Part shown: in pieces, positions 4,296 to 60,517 of the stretch | How positions within the stretch are numbered: the first letter of the stretch is position 1 | Layout: the number at the start of each line of letters is the position of its first letter | Source: Isurus oxyrinchus | Taxonomy: Eukaryota | Direction of reading: 5' to 3' | DNA: 64,000 nucleotides | NCBI GenBank assembly: GCA_026770705.1 | Contig: JANJGN010000005.1 | Coordinates: forward strand, 166,904,001 to 166,968,000 | Notes under the pieces: model-generated | What the model saw: the letters and a program-made list of their open reading frames with translations, nothing else | What the model was told of the DNA's origin: nothing | Database searches by the model: none | Made by a program: the position numbers and the translations under genes

Positions 4296-6197
4296 ATGGT
4301 TCTCATCCATTTAACTAATTATTAAGGAGTCCCTTTAATCAGCCAGTTGTGAACAACATGAACTTCAACCACCCAAAACCGCTCTCCTCCCACTTCAAAA
4401 GATCAGAAAAGCTGCGCTTGAAAAGAGACATTAAAATTATGTGCGTGTGACTTATGAAACCTGATCCTATACCTTCTACTCTTTCCCTGTCATCTTCATG
4501 CTTGCCCCTATCACCCTTGACCCATCCAGCTTAACCTTTCCTCTCCACCCTGTTACCCTTGAATCTCCCACCTGTTACCCTGAACTCTTTTACCATTTCC
4601 CTGTACATGCCATCTCTTCACCCGGTGCTGACAGCTGTGACCATCCATGACCCTGAATCCTTCCAATATCCTCCTCCATGCTTTTGTTCACTCCTGTGAC
4701 CCACTCCATGAGACCTTTCAAAACCCAGCCATGACTCTGGACTTGCCGCCATACTGAGGAGAACTCCTCCCTTTGACTGGGGTTGTTCCCTCCACCACCC
4801 AGCATCCTTAATTCAACCCTCAGGACAACATAATTGATAGCACTGACCTCGCCTTATAGTACATTCATCTTTCTTTCAACCCCTTACAGGACCACCACAC
4901 TCATGATGCTAGGCCCTTCCCTCCATGGCACCTCCCTACACCCAAACACCAACCTCTGCCCACCCTCCCTTCCCTCCAGCACACTTCCCTGCACCCGAAC
5001 ACCAAACTTTCACTTTGTGCCACAGAGTTCAACATGGAGAATTCCTTACCTTCATCACAATTGTACAAAACCAACTGGTGCATGCGACCTTTAATCGATC
5101 ATGAACTGGGTGCCAGGAGATTCTCGTGTGCTGCTCACTTTATCCTGAGGGTAGGACTTTATTCAAAACTGTTTCATGTTAATGAGTATTCATGGAATGC
5201 AAATGTATTACAAGTATGAATGCGCCACAGGCCAGCGTAATGCTCATCACGTCACAAACACACCACTGACTTTATCCCTGCATCTAAACCCACCATTGGG
5301 AAATTGAAATTTCGCATTCTGCCTAATTAATCACCCTACATGACACATTTCCCTAAAATGCCCCCTCCAGTGTCAGTGACCCTCAACCTTCCATTTGTCA
5401 TCTTAGAGCCTCTCCAATCAGCCTCTAGCTGCCTACTGTCATTCTGGGGCCTCCTTCCATCATCTTTGACCTGCCCTCGGTATCCTCTGACTCTCCCCCA
5501 GAGACACGACCTTCTCTCCCTCAAGCTGGAACTGTTCTCTATCAATCTAGGTCTCCCCTCCTTGACTGTTGACCTGCTAGGCATGGTACAGCTACCTCAT
5601 TTGGACACACAGGACAAGAACCCAGAAACAATGGACCCCATCCGATAGGCCTGAGCCTGGCTCCATTTGGGCACCTCCTCCCACTCTGGTCCCAAACATG
5701 CCAGTGCCTTGCTGCACTGTCATGTGAGGCCCCGACGACAATGACCCTCTCAGCAGCCCACTAGCTGCGCAGTTTGAGGCCCCGACCACCAGTACTCATC
5801 TCACCTCCCTCCCTCTATGTTACCACTACTGGACCTTCCAGCTTCTGTTGCTCCCCTCCCCTGTGTCATTCAGTTAGAAAAAGACAAAACTTCAGCTCAG
5901 ATTCTAAGATTGAACAACCTCGCCTGGTGCACATCACCCTTAAGCTGTCACAGTCCAGGATGGCACAAGTTTCCTGCATGCCACTAGCTTAATCTTGAAG
6001 GTAACTCTTAATTTGAAAAAGTTTCCCTTCAATAAATATTCATGGCATGCAGAGGCAAGGAAAATAGGTTCCTGGCACTGGATGACATAATGCCTGCTCT
6101 GCCATTGAAACGCCACTGGCTTAATTTCAAAAAATGCAACCACATTGTCGGGAAACCAAAATTAAGTCAACCCACCCACCTCCCCCTCCCATAGGCT

Positions 6198-6520
6198 CCA
6201 TTAGAGTGATAGAGCGCAGAAGGAAGATGTTCAACCCATTGAGTCTGTGTCAACTCTTTGAAAAAACTAACAATTCCAATCCCCTGCTCTTTCCCCGGAG
6301 GCCTTCATATTTTTAACGTTCAAATGTTAATCCAATTTCCTTTTGAAGTTTATTTTGAATGACTTTCGCCAACATTGCAGACAGCGCATTTCAGATCATA
6401 ACAAGTTACGGTGCTCAAAAAAAGAAATCACATCTCGCCTTTGGTTATTTTGCTAATCACTTTAAATCTGTGTCCTCTGCTTCCCAATCCTTCTGCTACA
6501 GCAAAACGTTGCTCCACAAC
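6198..6520 (-). mobile_element. CR1-type LINE 3' tail fragment (old)
   Basis: Resembles the other CR1 3' tails in the window (gaaggaagatgttcaacccattgagtctg, gcatttcagatcataac). Confidence 0.5.
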
Positions 6521-7080
6521 ACTGTCCACACCCTAGATGAAAACGATTAGCATGGCAAATTTCCACTGTTGCACCCATTTGCCACCACTCGAGGAGATTC
6601 TAACAATTAAGCTCATTTTCATGCACCTAGGCACCAGAAGACATATTTTAAAAGTTGCTAAACATTAAAAAAATTAACTTACAAATAACTACAAGAGTGC
6701 TACAATGAAACCAGAAAAAATGATCAGTTTACTTTGACGTAATTCATTTCAGTGACATGCCCAATAAAGACATGACATGTTCATAACTTTAAACATGGAT
6801 TGTATTCGGTGTAGAATTTTCTGGAACTGCTTTCTCTTTTTAAAAATAGACATTAAAAGCTGTTTAGATGGCTGCCGAGGGTCGAGTGATGCTTGCAATT
6901 TTTGCAATATATCAATGATAATTTTGTAATGCAAAGAAAATAAAAGTTGCTTGCTATTGTGATGCCTGATTGTCCTGGTTCATGGGAGATTTTACGTAAG
7001 TGCTGATGCAACTTGTTTGGGCAGGAATTTGAACCGTAACTTCAATTTGGAAAATGAAGGTGATCACAAGTGCAATTTCT

Positions 7081-10000
7081 GAACATATGAACATACAAAA
7101 TAGGAGCAGAAGTAGGCCATTCAGCCTCTCGAGTCTGCTCCACCATTCATTAAGATCATGGCTGATCTTCTTGTGTTTTGATTTCCACATTCCCATCTAC
7201 TTCTGATAACCTTTGATTCCTTTGCCTAAATAGAATCTATCTACCTCTGCCCTAAAAATATTCAATGAACCTGCCTCCATGACCTTCTGAGGCAGAGAGT
7301 TCCAAAGTTGCACAGCCCTCTGAGAGAAAACAATTCTCCTCATCTCTGTCCTAAAACAGCGAACCCTAATTTTAAAACAGTGCCCTCTAGTTCAGGATTC
7401 ATCCACAAAAGGAAACATCCTTTCCAATGCTGTTCTTTTTTTAAATTAATTCATGGGATGTCAGTTTTGCTGTCTGGGCCAGCATTTATTGCCCATCCTT
7501 AGTTACCCATGAGAAGGTTGTGGTGAGTTGCCATCTTGAACTATTGCAGTTCATGTGGTGTAGGTACAGCCACAGTGCTTTTAGGGAGGGAGTTCCAGGA
7601 TTTTGACCCAGTGACAGCCAAGAAGCTGTGATATATTTCCAAGTCAGGATGGTGAGTGACTTGGAGGGGAACTTCCAGGTGGTGGTGCTCCCATCTATCT
7701 GCTACCCTTGCCCTTCTAGATGGTTGTGGGCATGCGTTTGGAAGGCGCTGTCTAAGGAGCCTTGGTGAATTCCTGCAGTGAACCTTGTAGATGGTACACG
7801 TTGCTGCTAATGTGCGGTGATGGTGGAGGGAGTGACTGTTTGTGGATGTGGTGCCAAACAAGTGGGCTGTTTTGTCCTGGATGGTGTCAAGCTTCTTGAG
7901 CGTTGTGGGAGCTGCACTCATCCAGGCAAATGGGGAGTATTCCATCACACTCCTTACTTATGCCTTGTAGATGATGAACAGGCTTTGGAGAGTCAGGAGG
8001 TGAGTTATTTGCTGCCGGATTCTGAGCCTATGACCAGCCCTTGTAGCCACAGTATTTATGTGGTTAGTCCAGTTCAGTTTCTGTTCAATGGTGTTGATAG
8101 TGGGGGATTCAGTGACAATAATGCCATTGAACATCAGAAGACGATGGTTAGAGGCTCTCTTGTTGGAGATGGTCATTGTCTGGCACTTGTGTTGTGTGCA
8201 TGTTACTTGCCACTTGTGAGCCCAAGCCTGGATATTGTCCAGGTCTTGCTGCATTTGGACATGGACTGCTTCAGTATCTGAGGAGTCGCGAATGATGCTG
8301 AACTTTATGCAAACATCAGTGAACATCCCCACTTCTGACTTTATGATGGAAGGAAAGTCACTGATGAAGCAGCTGAAGGTGGTTGGGCTGAGGACACTTC
8401 CCTAAGGAACTCCTGCAATGATATCCTGGAGCTGAGATGACTGACCCCCAACAGCCACAACCATCTTCCTTTCTCCTAGGTATGACTCCAACCTGTGTAG
8501 AACTTTGACTCCCATTGACTCCAGTGTTGCTAGGGTTACTTGATGCCTCACTTGGTCAAATGTGGCTGTGATGTCAAGGGCAGTCACTCTCACCTCACCT
8601 TGGGTGTTTAGCTCTTTTGTCCATTTTTGAACCAAGGATGTAATGAGGTCAGGAACTGAGTGGTTCTGGCAGAACCCAAACTGGGCATCAGCGAGCAAGC
8701 TATTGCTAAGCAAGTGCTGCTTGATAGCACCATTGATGAACCCTTCCATTACTTTACTGATGATGGAGAAGAGGCTGATGGGGAGGTAATTGGCCGGGTT
8801 GGATTTGTCCTGCTTTTTGTGTACGGGACATACCTGGGCAATTTTTTACATAGCTGGGTAGATGCCAGTGTTGTAGCTGTACTGGAACAGCCTTGCTAGG
8901 GGTGCGGCAAGTTCTGGAGCACAAGTCTTCAGTGCTATTGCCGGAATATGTCACGGCCCATAGTCTTCGCAGTATCCAGTGCCTTCAGCCGTTCCTTGAT
9001 ATCATGGGGAATAAATTGCATTGACCTGAAGACTTGCGTCTGTAATGCTGGGGACCTCCGGAGGAGGCTGAGATGGATCATCCACTTGGCACTTCTGGCT
9101 GAAGATTGTAGCAAATGCTTCAGTCTTATCTTTTGCACTGATGTGCTGGGCTTCCGCACCATTGTAAATGGGGGTATTTGTGGAGCCACCTCCTCCAGTG
9201 AGTTGTTTAATTGTCCACCACCATTCATGACTGGATATGGCAGGACTGCAGAACTTAGATCTGATCCGTTGGTTTTGGGATCACTTGCTCTGTCTATCAC
9301 TTGCTGCTTATGCTGTTTCGCACTTAAGGTAGTCCTGTGTTATAGCTTCATCAGGTTGACACCTCTTTTTAAGTATGCCTGGTGCTGCTCCTGGCATGCC
9401 CTCCTGCCCTGGCTTGATGGTAATGGTAGAGTGGGGGATATGACGGGCCATGAGGATATGCCTCATGGATGCCCATTCTTGAGTTGCTAGATCTGTTCAA
9501 AATCTCTCCCATTTAGCACAGTGGTTGTGCCACACAACACGATGGAGGGTCTCCTCAATGTGAAGGCATGACTTCATCTCCGCAACGACAGTGCATTGAT
9601 CACTCCTAGTGATACTGTCATGGACAGATGCATCTGCAGCAGGCAGGTTGGTGAAGATGAGGTTAAGTATGTTTTTCCCTCTTGTTGGTTCCCTCACCAC
9701 CTGCCACAAACACAGTCTAGCAGTTATGTCCTTTAGGACTCAGCAAGCTCGGTCAGTAGTGGTGCTACCAAGACACTCTTGGTGATGAACATTGAAGTCC
9801 CCCACCATTCTGTGCCCTTGCCACCCTCATTGCTTCCTCCAAGTGGCATTCAACATTGAGGAGAACTGATTCATGAGATGAGGGAGGGCAGTAGATATCA
9901 AGTCACCCCTCACTCTTCTAAACACCAGTGGAAACAAGCCCCGTCTGTCTAATATTCCTTCCTAAGACAACCCACTTATTCCAGTTATCAATCTAGTAAT

Positions 10001-26650: not shown

Positions 26651-26934
26651 CATTATTCAAAAAAGGAGAGAAGTTAAAACTGGGCAGTTATAACTTAGGC
26701 TGAGGAGGGTGAAGAGAGATCATGCACTATCATCTCAGTCACAGGTATGGTCATTTGCAACTTTAATTAGGGCCATTTCTTTGCCTGAGAGAAATTCAGA
26801 TGAGGTAGTTTCAAACATGAAGCTGTGGGAAAGATGGACAATGGTTTTGCAGACAACAACTGTAGTTTTAAAGGGACAGATTGATCATGTGTGTTTTTTT
26901 TTCCCAGAGGTGGGTGCAGGCAACAGTTTTGAAT

Positions 26935-27203
26935 AACAGGGGACAGTATCTGGGAACAGGGGACAATATCTGGGAACAGGGGACAGTATCTGGGGAACAG
27001 GGCACTGTAGCTGGGAACAGGGGACAATATCTGGGAACAGGGGACAGTATCTGGGAACAGGGGACAATATCTGGGAACAGGGGACAGTATCTGGGAACAG
27101 GGGACAATATCTGGGAACAGGGGACAGTATCTGGGGAACAGGGCACTGTATCTGGGAACAGGGGACAGTATCTGGGAACAGGGCACAGTATCTGGGAACA
27201 GGG
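26935..27203. repeat. 20-bp minisatellite (ggggacagtatctgggaaca) x ~13
   Basis: Near-perfect tandem units alternating cagta and caata. Confidence 0.95.
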
Positions 27204-27473
27204 AAGTGTTTGCAGTTTCAGCTAGCATAGGAGCCAAGAAAAAGGTCAGAATTTTAATGGGAATAGGGTTGAGAGTGCAGGAGGTGAGTCTCATGGGCTG
27301 GAGCTCGGAAAGAGCACGAGGTGAGATAGGAGATAAAGTGTGAGGGGGGTTCAGAGCTCGGACATGGGGAAACCTCAGGTGAAGCTTGACTTGGTGGTCT
27401 CGGGGAAGGGGAATGTGGCAGACACAGATGAATGGTTGTTCTCAATCTTAATGTCGAAGAAGTTTATGAGTTT

Positions 27474-50504: not shown

Positions 50505-50715
50505 TCTCTTTACTTAAGGGGGGATATACTTGCATTGGCGGCAGTTCGGAGAAGATTCACTAGGTTGATTCCAGGGGTGGATGGGATGTCTTATGAGGAA
50601 AGGTTGAACAGGTTGGGTCTATACTCATTGGAGTTTCTAAGAATATGAGGAGATATTGAAACATATAGGGCAGAATTTTGCTCTTGGCGGGCAGGCTTGG
50701 GGGGCAGTGGGAAAG
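50505..50715 (+). mobile_element. CR1 fragment followed by a truncated MITE family A end (50668-50715)
   Basis: tatgaggaaaggttgaacaggttgggtct...gaaacatata then gggcagaattttg. Confidence 0.7.
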
Positions 50716-53700
50716 CTTCCTTCTACGTGTAGAATGTCTTGGCTCTACCACTTCAAATGCTTTGTCAGGAACCTCCTTTTCTGTTTCTTCAACTCTTGCA
50801 GGTACAACAGACACATCTGACACATCTGTACTATGTTGAATTCTCTCAACAGGAAATGTTGACTCAGTCGTGAACACTGGTGGCATAATTTCTTGGGGAT
50901 TTGTTTCTTTCTTCCTTAGATGATACACATGTCTTCACATGACTTGGCCTTCCACCTTCACATGGTAAGATAGAGGTCCAGCCGCTTTACTTATTTCACC
51001 CGGTAACCACTTTGGTCCTTCTCCAAAGTTCTTCACATACACCATCTCTCCTATGGTAAACTTCCTGTCATGACTATGCCAGTCATGTGTAGTTTTTTAA
51101 CTTCCCTGACTCCTTTCCACTTTCCCCCATAAATTCGGCATTATTAAGATCAATCTCGTCTTGAGACAGCGTTTCACCAATAATTCCGCAGGTGTGACAC
51201 CTGTTGTTGTGTGAGGGGTGATCTTATAATGGGAAAGAAAGCATGCTAGCTTGTTTGCTATGGAGTCTCCAGTTAATTTCTTCATGCCAGCCTTGAATGT
51301 TTGGCCCACCCTTTCAGCTAGTCCATTTGAGGAAAGGTGGTAGGGTGAAGTTGTTACATGAATGAAGCCGTTGAGGCTAATAAACTGCTGAAACTCAGCA
51401 CTCGTAAATGCCATGCCATTATCAAATATAACCACTTCTGGTTGTCTGTGAATGGCAAAACTTTGACATAGTTCTCAATTGTAGCAGAAGACATTGGTGA
51501 CTTCACCTCATATATGTCCATTCATTTTGAGTGGGCATCAACAATGAGCAGAAACATTGTTCCCAAGAAAGGTCCCACATAGTCAATATATAATCATACC
51601 CATGGCCTTCCTGGCCACTCTCAAGGGTGTAATGCCCATCGTTGTATTCTTGCTGAGGGTATGGGTGGTATAGCCTTGTACTCGCTGAGCAATCCTAGTA
51701 ATGGTTTATGGTCTGAAATGATAGTAAAATGGCGGCCACGTATGTGTTGGTGAAATAACTTGACACCAAAGAAGATCAACAAGCCGCCTTTTTCTATCTG
51801 TGAGTATCCCTTGTCCACTGTGGTAAGCGTTCTTGAGACACATCCTATAGGCCATTCTGTGCCATCATCCATTCAATGGGAGAGCACAGCTCTCACTACA
51901 CCACTCCACCAGTTCTTTCCTCTGGTCATAATGTTGGACGAGTGCAACAATTTTTTTTCACCTTTATGAAAACTTCTTTCTGTAGTGCCTCCCAAGATCA
52001 ATATTGGTTCTTCTTGAGTATATAATACAGGGGTGCCAGTTCTGTAGACAAATTGGGTAAGAAACGCCCATAATAAGTGATCATCCATAAGAATGATTTG
52101 AGCTCGAAGGTGTTCTTTGGTGAAGGTGCCTCTCTTATGGCTCTCACTTTTTCATCAACTAGCTGGAGGCCCTGTGAATTTACCCAGTGACCCAAATAGA
52201 TTACCTCCTTTGCTTGGAATGTGCACTTGAGAGTGGCCAGGAAGGCCATGGGTATGATTATATATTGACTATGTGGGACCTTTCTTGGGAACAATGTTTC
52301 TGCTCATTGTTGATGCCCACTCAAAATGAATGGACATATATGAGGTGAATTCACCAACGTCTTCTGCTACAATTGAGAACTATGTCAAAGTTTTGCCATT
52401 CAGCCTGCAAGAAATGTTTTAAGACGACTTCTAAGCTTGTCAAATGCTCCTTTTCAGTGAGTCCTGTCAGAAGAACGTCATCTAAATAAATTACAACATG
52501 GGGCAGCCCCTGCAATAAACTTTCATTGTTCTCTGGAATATGGCGCAAGCTGAGGAGACTCCAAAAGGCAACAGGTATATTGGTACAACCCTTTGTGTGT
52601 ATTCATTGTGACAAATTTCTGGGAGATCTTCTCTAACTCTAATTGTTGATAAGCATGACTCATATCAAACTTCATGTAGGTGGTTCCACCTGCCAGCTTA
52701 GCATACAGGTTTTCAATTTTTGGTATGTGGTGTTTGTCCAGCTAAGCCACTTTATGAACTGTGAATTTGTGGTCTCCACAAATTTGAATGCTTTGATCGG
52801 GTTTAAGGACTATTGGTGCTGCCTATTCTGAGACCTGCACAGGTTGTATAATGCCCTTTTTCTCTAATATGTCCAGTTTGGCATCGATCTTTTCCTTCAT
52901 TGTATACGGAACTGGTCTTGCCTTCATGAATCAGGGGGTTGCCTCTGGTTCCACATAAATTTTTGCTTGCAGCCCCTGGATCTTCCCTAGTTCACCCTTG
53001 AAGACTGAGGCAAATTTTTGTAGTAGCTCTGGTAGCCCACTTGCTCTCAGCTGAAAAATTTCAGCCCATTCTAACTTAATCCCCTTTAGCCAGTTTTGTC
53101 CAAGGAGGCTTGGCCCCTCACCTGCTGCCACCATCGAAGGTGGTTCTACCGATTGGCTGCCGTAATGGACAGCAACTCTGCTATGTCTTTGACTTGGATG
53201 TCTTCACCCGTGTAAGTTTTTAATTTGGCATCAGTTTCTTCCAAATTTAATTTATGTTCACCGCAATTCAGATATTTGAAGGTGTGTTCATCAATGACTG
53301 CAGTGGAAGCTCCTGTGTCCACTTCCATTCTAATAGGTCTGCCATTTACCTTCACTGTTACATGTATTAATTCTGTTTTTCCAACCTTCAAATTAAATAA
53401 TGAATAAATATCTTAATTTGTTGCTTTAGGCTCTTCTACAATTAAGATCTCATGGGTTTTTTCCTTTTATTTGGAAGTCTACCTGATTCTTTCCTTGCAC
53501 TGTCTCATTAGGTTTTCCTTTCAATGGCAATAAAAACATTCGATTTTTTTTTAAACTGCCAATCATTATAAAGTTGTCTGTTTCCACCTCTGTTCCAATT
53601 ATTCCTTGTTTTTGCTGCTAAATCATTTATTTTTAATTTTCTGCTAGTGCTGTTTCCTGTTTTTCGATAGAATCTTGCAATTTCGCGCCCTTTTCAGCTG

Positions 53701-54775
53701 GGGCTTCCCGCTCAGTGTGGAGGATGGCACCATTTTGCACTTCCTGTATGGCTTTTGAATCCCTTACTGTGCTTCCCATGGCCAGTGTTATCTCTAGCAC
53801 CTTCTTAAAATGCAGATTTGTTTCAGACAGTAATCTGTTCTGAATCATGTCGTCATTCATACCGCACACTAACTGATCTCTGAGTATGTCATTTAAAGAT
53901 GTGACAAACTCGCAATGTCCTGTTAACTGTTTCAAACTTGCCACATAGCAAGCAAGTGTCTTCCCCGGGGCTCTACTTCTTGAGTTAAATTTTAAGCATT
54001 GCATCATTACTGAGGGCTTTGGCTGGTAATGACCCTTTACGAGGGCCACCAAGTCATCAAAACATTTCGAACCTGGTGCACTGCGTGCCGTCAAACCTTG
54101 AACAAAGCCATAGGCTTTACTCCCTCATGTGGATAAGAGGACCGTTTACTTCTTCTCTTACCCCGCAATGTGGCTCGCTTGAAAAAAAAATGTGAGGCAT
54201 TCAATGTAATGAGACCAGTCGTCCATGGCTGGATCAAAAGGATCATTTCTTCCGAATTGCGGCATCCTGTGAGGGGATTGCTTCGACAATTAGGTTGGCA
54301 ATTCTACTTACAGTTACCATGCGAGGTACAGCCCAATTTCATTTCTCTTGATTTCTTTCGTTAACTTGTTTTAGTCTCGAAGCCAGTCTATTGTATCTTT
54401 GGTTTTTTTTCCCACTTTTTTCTTGGTTTTTTCCTCATCGCCAGTTTGTTGGATCCCAGTCACAGTTTGTTGGGACTTATGAATCCGGGTTGCACGCTTG
54501 TTGTGGGTTGGCCAAGTTGGTACAATGGACAGAATTGATTAGCAGACAGTTCTTGGGTGAAACACATTCTGTTTATTTACAAAGGTACTCAGCAGCTACA
54601 CTTGTGTGCTTTCAATTCAAACCCTGTCTCCATACTTCTGCCTACTAACTCAGACTACTGACTACAGAGGTAGCCTGTGCTACTCCTCTATAGGTTACAT
54701 AGGATCATGTGGTCTTCCTTTATAACATCCTTCTTAAAGGTATACTACATATTATATAAAGGCATAATTACCACA
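50716..54775 (-). mobile_element. Ty3/Gypsy LTR retrotransposon 1 (gag-PR-RT-RNH-IN), decayed, 3' LTR missing
   Basis: 5' LTR ~54447-54775; PBS tggcgatgagg (tRNA-Ser-like); gag LRDQLVCGM; PR MEVDTGAS; RT YLDD; RNH YSQIEK..SDHKPL; IN DNG..F and PYHLSSNGLAER. Confidence 0.92.
51449..52402. repeat. 177-bp inverted repeat (arms 51449-51625 and 52226-52402)
   Basis: Arms are reverse complements with about 2 mismatches found by eye; 600-bp spacer. Confidence 0.92.
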
Positions 54776-56480: not shown

Positions 56481-56880
56481 TATGCTTCTACCTTCTTTAT
56501 CTTTTCTTTCAAAGGCCATTGTTACCTCTCAAAATTCAACTTGTTTTAAAAAATAAATGAGGAAAGAAACTGTTTGAAATTAGGTTTTGTGATTTATTTG
56601 TCACCGTGCAAGCAGAAACTTCGATTAACGTTTTAAAGTGAAGGATCCATGACCTTTCCCTGGCTGCACACCTCAAGTGGGACTCCATGTGCCCTTCCAG
56701 AGGCTGGTGTCGTGTTTGATTCATGAACCAAGTTCCGGTTTAATACTGGTCCTTTATGGGTAAAGGAAATGAAAGATTTCAGTGTAGTGGGACCTGCTGG
56801 GTACCCTGACCTCAATCTATCCACATTCCTCCACCCTCCCCACCCAACCTGCCTCTGATCCAGCTGCCCTTGTAAGGGGA

Positions 56881-57107
56881 TGTTATAGAGTTGATCTTCA
56901 GACAACTTTTCTTAATGGAAACATTTAACTCTTTGTACAAGCAGTTACAACTACCCGTGTGCATTAAACTCCATAACTAAAAAAAAACTCTCTCTGTAGA
57001 GATTCTCCGCACTGCTAACACATTGGTTTACACAGGTCATGTTATCTTACAGCACAGGATTATTCTCAAAGCTACAGCCTAACATGTCCCAGACTATAAT
57101 TACTACA
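56881..57107 (-). repeat. 3' LTR of Gypsy element 2
   Basis: TG...CA termini; PPT adjacent at 57108-57121; homologous to 59661-59851. Confidence 0.9.
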
Positions 57108-57721
57108 TTCCTGCCCCTTTTAACTCTTCTGTACATTTTGCATTTACAAGGGTATTTACTTCATGACATTATAATATTTACAAAGGTCCTGAAATTACAA
57201 TTCAGTCTTTCAGTTCATTTCCTGATCCGTGTGGAACGTTACAACTCCACGACTTCAGATTCTTTTGTAGGAAACACACTCTTTGGAACCACATTAACAT
57301 CAGGTACCTCATTAGGCACATACAGTTCAGTGTCTTCCACTCCGATAGAGACATCAGGCATGTCTGCCCTTGGCTGAGACTCTTCAACAGGAACCACTGG
57401 TTCAGTAATGGTTGCAGGTAGAATGGTATCTTGTTGTGGTATCTCTCTTTTTCTTAAATGATCCACATGCTTATGGATGATCTGGCCCTCCACTTCCACA
57501 TGGTATGACAATGGTCACTGTCACTGAGTGGTCACTGAGCTTGGTCCTCCACCAAAATTCTTTACATATACTGCTTCTCCAACAGTACATTGTCACTCAT
57601 GACGACGCAAACCATGAGTCACTTTTTGGTTCCCTTGACTTTTCTCCACCTTCCCCTCCAAATTGGGAAGTATTAGGCTCAGTCTTGTCCAAAGACTGCG
57701 CCTCATTAATAATTCTGCATC

Positions 57722-58285
57722 TTCTTTCTGCGTTTTATATCTTCTTTTTAACCACATAATTTAATCTCGGCCATCTTTTTGACTTCACTGTCAGCCAGAT
57801 TTCTCTCAGATGCAATCTCAGCTTGTTTTAGTTTAGTAGCTGAGTCACCCAAGGCTTCGTTATCTGTTTACCTCTTGGAAAGTTCTATAACTTTTGCTTT
57901 CAAAGCCTCTTTAGCTTAATTTAGCTGATTCTTCAGCTCTTCGTCTCTTCCTTGTATCTGTTGGCTTCCTCCCGGAAACTTGAACATTGCTGCATCTTCT
58001 CTGCCAACTGGTTCTTCAGTTTGTTCAGAGAGATGTCAGCTTCTTCCTGTTTTTCTTTGTACTTTTCCAGGCACACAAATTTTGACCTGAAGGAATCTTG
58101 TAGTGTGTGAAGGTCTTTCAACAGGTTTTCCTTTTCTTTGTGAAGGCTACTCACTTTGTCTTGAACTCTGTCATTCAGCAAAGTCTCCTTGAGTTTCTTC
58201 TGCTGTTCTTCCATGTTGTTGTTTAAGAAAGTCTTCATTTCTTCAGGTTGTTGAATCCTTACACACACCTTTTTCATCCTGTGGT
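57722..58285 (-). pseudogene. Captured host-like coiled-coil coding fragment, UACA/RAI14/ANKRD24-family-like
   Basis: QDKVSSLHKEKENLLKDLHTLQDSFRSKFVCLEKYKEKQEEADISLNKLKNQLAEKMQQCSSFREEANRYKEE. Not Gypsy-like; resembles the UACA coiled coil as I recall it; needs BLAST. Confidence 0.65.
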
Positions 58286-59660
58286 GGTCCTTGGACCCTC
58301 CAAGCTCTTTCTGAAATACCTTGCCTTGTTCCTTTTTCAAGACAGGAACTCTTCCAGCTTCCTTTTGAAATCTCACTGGCCAATCAAGGTTGATTTCCCT
58401 TAACCAATTTTGACCTAGCAGGCTTGGTCCTCTGCCTTTCAATACTATCACTGGTAGATATACTGATTCGGGTCTATAATGGACATTTGCTCTGATGATG
58501 CTTTTACTTGGATTTCTTTGCCTGTGAACATTTTCAAATTGGCAGATGTTTGTTCCAAATTTAATTGTTGATCACCTTTATTTAAATATCTGAAAGCGTG
58601 TTCTCCTATTATAGTGGTGCAAGCACCCATGTCTACCTCCAATTTTAATGGTTTACAGTTCATTTACACTGTAACAAATATTGGCTCTGTCTTCCCAACT
58701 TTCATGTTGAATAGTGAATAAATGTTAAAACTTGTTGTTTCAGGCTCATCTACACTATAGACTTCTTTGGACTTTGTTTGTTGTTTGGAAGCCTGTTTAA
58801 ATCTCTCTTTGTACTGTCTCATTATGTGTCCACTTCTGTGACAAAAATAGCAGACTACTTTTTTATATGCCAATCGCTAGAATTGGCATGTTGCTGAAAG
58901 TTATTTTTCAATTTTGTTGCTAAGCTGTTTCCCCTTGTTTTTCAGTTAGCTGGGGCTGTTTCCCATTCACGGTGGAGTCCCAGCTTTTTGTGCCACTTTC
59001 AGCTGATGTTCCCACCTTATTTGGAGCACAGCACCATTTTGCACCCCTTGAATTATTTGTGAATTCCTTACAGTGCTTTCCATTGCCAGCACTATTTCTA
59101 ATGCTTTCTTAAAATTGAGATTCACTTTAGCCAGCAATCTTCACTGAATAGTGTCTTCCTGCACACCACATATTAAACAATCTCTGAACATGTCATTCAG
59201 GGTTTCACCAAAATCACAATATTCCATTAGTTGCTTTAATTTCGCCATGTAGGTAGCAATGGTCTATCATTGGGCTTGATTCCATGTATTGAATCTGAAC
59301 CTCTGCATTGTGACTGAGGGCTTGGGTTGAAAATGTCCCTTAACGAGGTCTACTAATTCAGTGAAAGTTTTCAAATCTGGGGCATTGGAGGCCATCAAGC
59401 TTCAAATTAAACTATAGGTCTTGCTTCCACAAGTACTCTGGAAAATTGCTCTTCTCTTTTCCTCCCCCATTATTTTGTCTGCTTGAAAGAAGAACGCAAC
59501 ATGTTTTATATATTGAGGCCAATCATCTGTGGCTGGCTCAAAGAGATCAATTCTGCGGAAATGTGGCATTTTGGATGAGTACATCTTTTATTTTTAACGA
59601 ACTTAGATACTCACAATCTCTGATCAAGGCACCAAATCTGATGTATCTTCATCGCCAGTT

Positions 59661-59851
59661 TGTTAGAGTTGATCTTTAGACAACTTTTCTTAGTGGGGAC
59701 ATTTCACCAAACTTCATAACTAAAGAAATGCTCTCTCTGTCAAGATTCCCCGCGCTGCTAACACATTGATTTACACAGGTCATGTAACATCACAGCATGG
59801 GATTATTCTTAAAGCTGCAGTCCAACATTTCCCAAAACCTTAATTATGGTA
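59661..59851 (-). repeat. 5' LTR of Gypsy element 2
   Basis: Adjacent to the PBS (59645-59657); diverged from the 3' LTR with a ~35-bp indel. Confidence 0.88.
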
Positions 59852-60517
59852 GGGGACATGGAGGCTTTGTGCCTCATAAGCCTGAGCAGGACTCAGTATA
59901 CTTAGGTGTTAGCCTTTTTCAAGTTGTTTCACCACAGTAACTGAAGCTATAGCAGGAATGTAAGGGAAGAACTGAGGAAATTTAATCCATATATTGAAAC
60001 TTCAGCATCACTACATTTAAATTTATTACATATATATCTATCAAAAATGTAGAAAACTAAAACATCACTGTTTCCTATTTTAATCAAAATTACTATTCTT
60101 GCCATTAGTATAATTTATCTTAACTTAAAGAAAAAAATCCTAATTCATAAATACAACAGTAAATGTTTAATTGTATACACCAAAGCACCTCAAAATGCTT
60201 AACTCAATATCGGAGTACTGGGCTTGTGTAATAAATACTGCAAAGCAGTCTATCAGCCTTATTTAGTGCAGAACATCAGACAGAATATATTAATGATATA
60301 ATATCAAAGCTGATGGACCTTAAAGGGACCAGAGATGCAAATGGTTTGTCTTACTCTTTCATCAGTGCTTTCATTAGTCATGTGAGAAATTGGGAATCCA
60401 GATACATGGCAAAAGGCATATTTGACTAGTAAATGACATATTTGTCAATGGCAAATAAGACATTTGACAAGTAGGCAGCACTGTTGGGCATATGGTCTCA
60501 ACACTCATATTTACATG

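Follow-up and report, generated by a model that had tools for sequence, protein, structure and literature searches.

Acutely transforming retroviruses are vertebrate LTR elements in which captured host mRNA replaces a coding domain, and host-mRNA capture by LTR elements is known mostly from young, low-copy cases. In the LTR-mediated retrocopies of animals described by Tan et al. 2016 (PMC5131818), partial host mRNA takes the place of the internal ORFs. Crocodilian ERVs carrying KIT-ligand or nectin3 (Chong et al. 2014, PMC4299795) are presented as vertebrate LTR elements that were amplified after capture of a host mRNA and gave up a coding domain for it. The maize LTR element Bs1 (PMC13317346) is reported to hold several host gene segments in one hybrid frame. 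The TR-GAG plant elements, as characterised in PMC8704663, keep gag without RT and integrase and have an autonomous partner.

Here we describe an element with features of all of these in the shark Isurus oxyrinchus. It occupies 59851-56881, on the minus strand, of a 64,000-nucleotide window (contig JANJGN010000005.1, positions 166,904,001 to 166,968,000), the window being the whole stretch of DNA that was analysed. We consider it probable that this copy, now decayed, belongs to a multi-copy family, F1, whose core was replaced by part of the host gene UACA obtained second-hand from another LTR family, F2, and that the UACA part travelled as a passenger in an open frame.

Like the retrocopies of PMC5131818, the shark case has more than one parent gene, a bias to sense and in-frame capture, and secondary mobilisation; the short common sequence that those retrocopies have at their switch points may be present at the shark junctions too. 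However, the retrocopies in that account are young and have one or few insertion sites, whereas the shark case is old, has thousands of copies and adds a relay into a second, unrelated LTR lineage. The likeness to Bs1 (PMC13317346) lies in several host segments in one hybrid frame of an LTR element, but Bs1 is portrayed there as a retained chimeric gene of a plant, while the shark copies examined are broken and their cargo is drifting. Like the crocodilian ERVs (PMC4299795), F1 amplified after host mRNA capture and lost a coding domain; those are described as few-copy retroviruses with a cargo under purifying selection, in contrast to F1, which is Gypsy-like, has lost the pol core and has a neutral cargo. 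F1 shares with TR-GAG (PMC8704663) a kept gag, the lack of RT and integrase and an autonomous partner, but it also kept the protease and has host sequence fused in frame, gag not being its sole domain. The mechanism is a known one; new, and unusual, are the passing of cargo between unrelated lineages, its two coiled coils, the scale reached and the survival of the whole series. A literature search, with subscription journals, Repbase and Dfam outside its scope, found no paper with UACA, retrotransposon and shark together, and no mention of 'nucleoprotein TPR' among the papers listed.

The window copy has the ends of an LTR retrotransposon. TCCCC (GGGGA on the plus strand) abuts the element on either side (59852..59856 upstream, 56876..56880 downstream), and these matching flanks form a 5-bp TSD. 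When aligned with each other, the 5' LTR (59661..59851) and 3' LTR (56881..57107) are identical at 157/190 positions, with 35 nt missing from the 5' LTR by an internal deletion. The primer-binding site at 59657-59645 corresponds, decay aside, to the 3' end of tRNA-Ser(GCT) from this genome, and a polypurine tract (57108..57123) precedes the 3' LTR. Between them lie a broken gag (58721..59569), delimited by alignment to another element in the window (element 1, below), and a broken aspartic protease with the beginning of the PR-RT link (58285..58720), recognised by a Pfam protease match on sister copy L012. The gag has stops at 59404, 59269, 59266, 59143 and 58944, frameshifts near 59007, 58966 and 58868, and a weak zinc-knuckle match near 58855-58813; the protease has a stop at 58666 and a frameshift near 58502. 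The coding span as a whole holds nine in-frame stops and several frameshifts. An ORF at 57933-58571 (212 aa, stop to stop) runs from the protease end into a coiled coil, and the window ORFs gave no more than weak coiled-coil and zinc-knuckle matches in Pfam. There is no RT, RNase H or integrase core, and about 560 nt stand in their place. The integrase C-terminal tail, in another frame, and the 3' untranslated part follow (57124..57721). Apart from the TSD, all these parts are on the minus strand.

The 560 nt had been taken by the first-pass annotation for one sense-strand coiled-coil insert resembling UACA. Its origin and orientation were borne out: a natural sister copy of the insert, used as query, matched six shark UACA proteins (E 2e-34 to 1e-24), and alignment to the host exon gave the sense orientation. 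The 117-aa window piece used alone in the homologue search found no match. The insert is also not continuous; the UACA match falls into two pieces about 150 residues apart, followed by a linker. Piece A (57929..58277) is 73% identical to host L061:6695-7047 and piece B (57826..57937) is 71% identical to host L061:7489-7600. The two overlap in the 9-nt repeat GCTGAAGAA (57929..57937), a family marker; in the host exon they are 450 nt apart, and these 450 nt (150 codons) are gone here. Downstream of piece B, about 105 nt (57722..57825) are non-UACA linker, absent from host UACA and common to F2. In the host exon (G000:C25) a frame of 911 residues is free of stops and 98.8% identical to its counterpart in Carcharodon UACA, which makes this shark a close relative of Carcharodon. 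Since the captured UACA comes from this single exon, it cannot by itself show an RNA route.

A DNA search gave 4,813 first-look candidates, and the 39 scored besides the window were 85-89% identical. The insert sits between the protease and the integrase tail in all other fetched loci (29/29). A 29-letter pattern over the internal join, with up to three mismatches allowed, matched 2,560 genomic places (control 0), which puts the copy number at 2,560 at least; the same pattern matched 30/30 F1 loci found by DNA and 0/30 donor-type loci. TSDs were compared in 15 flank pairs, from all five solo LTRs (5/5) and from 10 of the 21 full-length copies, the other 11 being left out because their LTR ends were not both cleanly placed. 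The 15 flanks were all different, and the mean agreement within pairs was 3.9/5 compared with 1.7 after shuffling. The same structure at many loci with different TSDs identifies an independently inserted family, and F1 is thereby confirmed as a non-autonomous LTR retrotransposon family without RT, RNase H and integrase core. The mobilised non-autonomous family suggested earlier therefore exists, and its junction is not a single-copy rearrangement. In one place, G000:C9:5919871-5948940, at least five F1 insert matches lie within 30 kb, which suggests that one copy forms a tandem array there.

A search with the F1 LTR found 29 other loci, seven with RT/integrase core, seven with the UACA insert, eight with gag only within the flank, two with the tail only and five that were solo LTRs. 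Fetched parent copies run from gag through integrase between the same LTRs, so this full-pol partner (7/29 LTR-found loci) has F1's LTR and primer site and the UACA segment is not an ordinary part of it. That the segment replaces the RT/RNase H/integrase core, as first proposed, agrees with the RT/IN sequence kept at these seven loci. In gag, PR and the tail, F1 has diverged from the parent at about 4% of sites. Its PR-RT link (window 58300-58400) is much farther from the parent than gag and protease are, and is now Lys/Glu-rich. By its gene order PR-RT-RNase H-integrase, as read from element 1, the parent would be of Gypsy type. Parent copies match the pol region of element 1 (window 50700-54775, minus strand), a decayed full-pol Gypsy-like element with an LTR different from F1's. 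Element 1 has Pfam matches to protease, RT, RNase H and integrase, those to RT and integrase being below the curated cut-off because the copy is broken. The window copy of F1 aligns to it over gag-PR (66%) and the integrase tail (67%), with nothing between, and element 1 was rejected as F1's parent, being only a distant relative with another LTR. A parent search by the element 1 motif pattern was likewise rejected, as it returned relatives of 58-69% only; the true parent was found via the LTR. Within element 1 there is a 177-nt inverted repeat (window 51449-51625 and 52226-52402, 99% complementary). This is an inverted integrase-region copy within RT, which either arose long after the element itself or comes from the assembly.

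When the UACA part missing from F1 was used as query, the host exon and many dispersed copies were found. Eighteen dispersed copies were fetched, and none (0/18) matched F1 outside the insert. They belong to F2, a second LTR-bounded family of about 4.3 kb whose LTR and primer site differ from F1's (2,523 first-look candidates; loci L063-L080 and L143-L202, for example L074:1755-5918). F2 gave no protease match and has only a remnant that we take to be gag-like. It contains host UACA 6050-7640 (about 1.55 kb) with various deletions and, downstream of it, a part of TPR (Pfam PF25481, E 7.5e-18). The TPR part consists of consecutive host TPR exons (C16) joined exactly at six AG/GT boundaries, and these six exact splice junctions without introns are direct evidence of mRNA capture by F2; for its UACA piece we infer an RNA route. 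In F2 one phase stays open across about 850 codon columns; two of these are stop columns, of CpG type, as against 76-88 in the other phases (11/39 copies). At the join of gag remnant and coiled coil the frame offsets are divided 12/8/5 among 25 copies, and two copies read through in one frame. A PDB sequence search with an F2 piece gave no match, and the F2 linker, searched against 1.84 billion proteins, found only four catshark hypothetical proteins that are themselves element copies. Two further coiled-coil-like stretches, after and before UACA (L074:4290-4630 and L074:2900-3155), for which no host gene was found, are possibly further captured genes or decayed gag.

The UACA sequence ends at the same point in F1 and F2, and the same linker follows in both. 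Linker similarity between the families gave z 3.6-9.7 in 27/27 comparisons, while the linker against the host gave z <1. A basking shark gene model (P0015) has the 450-nt join together with an F2-type linker. All 30 loci found with P0015 (30/30) had the 450-nt join in F2 flanks and had no F1 gag or protease, the protein query by which these donor loci were chosen favouring open frames; the TPR exon set tested was matched by only 1/30 of them. In a nucleotide tree of 14+14+9 hand-picked copies, F1 (bootstrap 100) is nested in the F2 subfamily with the 450-nt join (bootstrap 100), and in a protein tree F1 and F2 form one clade (97). Between the F1 insert and the donor copies sampled, divergence is 16%. 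About 5-6 decayed nt are common to parent and donor at each outer junction, where decay makes the exact switch points approximate, and the internal join has 9 nt of exact shared sequence. The same 450-nt join, the same linker and the nesting in F2 indicate that F1's UACA came from F2 and not from host mRNA, and the fragment was likely handed from one transposon family to the other. The capture from host mRNA by this very element, put forward in the first-pass annotation, is thus replaced by a relay; mRNA capture as such holds for the donor with its spliced TPR, but in F1 the UACA likely arrived second-hand.

The capture appears to be old. F1 and F2 have none of the residues specific to Carcharodon and this genome (0/9), and they branch, with modest support, near the lamniform-carcharhiniform split. 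Gene models of the catshark Scyliorhinus torazame contain the F2 linker, one of them with UACA piece B ahead; with F2 cargo there, the capture likely predates that split. F1-type pieces occur in Carcharodon and Cetorhinus gene models. LTR pairs gave K 0.11-0.20 (12/21 copies with clean ends). Contigs of a second organism, from three runs, bridge the 5' junction of the window insertion, and the flanks differ by 2-3%. Compared with this flank difference, the LTR divergence makes the insertion several times older than the split from that organism, a ratio that CpG decay inflates. Assuming shark divergence dates from general knowledge, we put the age at roughly 100-200 million years, so by this rough estimate a host gene fragment has been spreading for more than 100 million years.

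Column counting over 28 copies gives a single frame of 620 codon columns that takes in gag, protease, UACA and linker; its one stop column is a CpG-decay site, as are 76 other columns. The single gag-PR-coiled-coil frame proposed earlier is therefore a property of the family, and one natural copy reads unbroken for 253 residues, starting in gag and passing the protease to reach the coiled coil; an intact fusion ORF is another matter, as 0/28 copies are stop-free. With no intact copy among the 28, translation and trans-mobilisation are inferred. At the 5' junction from pol to UACA (58278..58300), which has a short common sequence, the net frame is preserved across the family despite an offset from the parent. 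This offset is family-wide, and the 1-bp deletion near 58300, suspected earlier of having created the frame join, is not peculiar to the window copy.

Shared non-CpG variants and singletons were compared for their N:S ratios. These were 44:45 against 379:111 in gag (P 2e-7) and 20:22 against 216:65 in PR (P 3e-4), but 45:19 against 258:86 in UACA plus linker (P 0.44), and the contrast between gag/PR and UACA plus linker gave P 0.006. As far as variant counts can tell, gag and PR show purifying selection and the UACA piece appears neutral in amino acids. The signal in gag and PR could come from recombination with the parent (4% as against 16% divergence); the test on the integrase tail gave P 0.31. 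F1 is therefore like transducing retroviruses of the gag-onc type in structure and mechanism, but the conserved captured function expected by analogy with them did not survive the neutral ratio.

The history that we favour would begin with an ancestral Gypsy-like F2 that acquired the UACA coiled-coil exon of about 1.55 kb and TPR cDNA. Repeat-guided deletions would have trimmed this cargo, one of them taking the 450 nt, as is seen in the F2 subfamily. Two switches at short common sequences would then have carried the 560 nt over to a full-pol family, one whose LTR and primer site are not those of F2, at the expense of everything from RT to the integrase core; the junctions are present, and template switching of co-packaged RNAs would account for them. 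F1, whose examined copies are all broken now, likely encoded its own Gag and protease in one long frame and likely relied for RT and integrase on the parent, whose LTR and primer site are the same. The UACA piece likely travelled as a passenger that needed an open frame but could vary freely in sequence. A long 3' untranslated region can expose RNA to decay, and translation further along the RNA would most likely have protected F1 RNA from it.

A passenger with an open frame is close to two other readings of the same history. If the insert were pure neutral filler, the open frame would be due to chance and ascertainment. The neutral N:S fits this, the loci were picked as best matches, and the repeats of the exon are mostly in frame; as 85% of its 9-nt repeats are in frame anyway, in-frame deletions were rejected as proof of selection. 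However, there is no stop among the 72-80 changes fixed on the F1 stem in copies found by DNA (P 0.007), whereas singletons carry 6-7% stops, and none over both steps (0/106, P 0.0008). Piece A has one shared indel, of 3 nt, with no family-wide frameshift, and the frame was held at the 5' junction though offset from the parent. We regard mere filler as improbable. More weight, though still well short of an even chance, goes to selection of the coiled coil as a protein module, either a dimeriser behind the protease, in the place of RT, or a Gag-tethered UACA/TPR rod in F2. Both known captures are long coiled coils, sense and in frame, the F2 phase is open over its ~850 codon columns, and the lack of fixed stops suits this reading too. 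Between host and F2 no change to proline was fixed, as against 40 among singletons; the same counts have a synonymous excess, which may belong to the host lineage. In HIV-1, RT-RT contact is reported to help protease activation (PMC11998509). On the other side, the insert is neutral on the F1 stem (N:S 52:20, P 0.65), where polar residues replaced 7/14 of the hydrophobic ones that changed and one proline went to fixation; repeated deletions removed most of what had been captured; and F2 gave no protease match and has only its gag remnant.

It is doubtful, to a similar degree, that coiled coils, UACA and then the TPR nuclear-basket rod, were recruited by shark Gypsy lineages as a functional Gag-fused module, stayed in frame despite many deletions and were traded between unrelated lineages because they helped. 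Such a module might stand in for RT as a sequence-tolerant dimeriser, or act as a decoy for the control of RNA at the nuclear pore, TPR being a protein that helps to retain unspliced RNA. If true, it would be a host-derived accessory gene tradable among vertebrate retrotransposons. That this element took UACA straight and independently from host mRNA is very improbable, and the linker common to F2 already goes most of the way to refuting it. The 73% nucleotide identity to the host exon and the short common sequence at the 5' junction would fit the host as well, but the 450-nt join and the exit point, like the non-host linker, are common to F2, 31 columns have F1 equal to F2 and unlike the host as against 7 where only F2 differs, and F1 falls within F2 in both trees. 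The passenger obtained from F2 thus remains the preferred reading.

One genome preserves the full series of host exon, two-gene first carrier, deletion intermediates, full-pol parent and relay product, and it shows co-packaging-type recombination of unrelated LTR lineages in the vertebrate germline. The copies are a large natural data set in which open-frame selection can be separated from selection on protein sequence, and insertions held in common are old phylogenetic markers. The families also explain spurious UACA/TPR-like shark gene models, six in three other sharks. An MHC class I-like gene model of Carcharodon (P0009, LOC121291255) contains an F1 gag piece and the joined UACA insert, which is either exonisation or an annotation artefact. 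Contigs of other, diverged copies occur in four presumed-RNA runs, some of them spanning the PR-UACA junction; coming from diverged copies, they show no active element. Elsewhere in the window, 26891-27212 is a tandem repeat with a 20-nt period.
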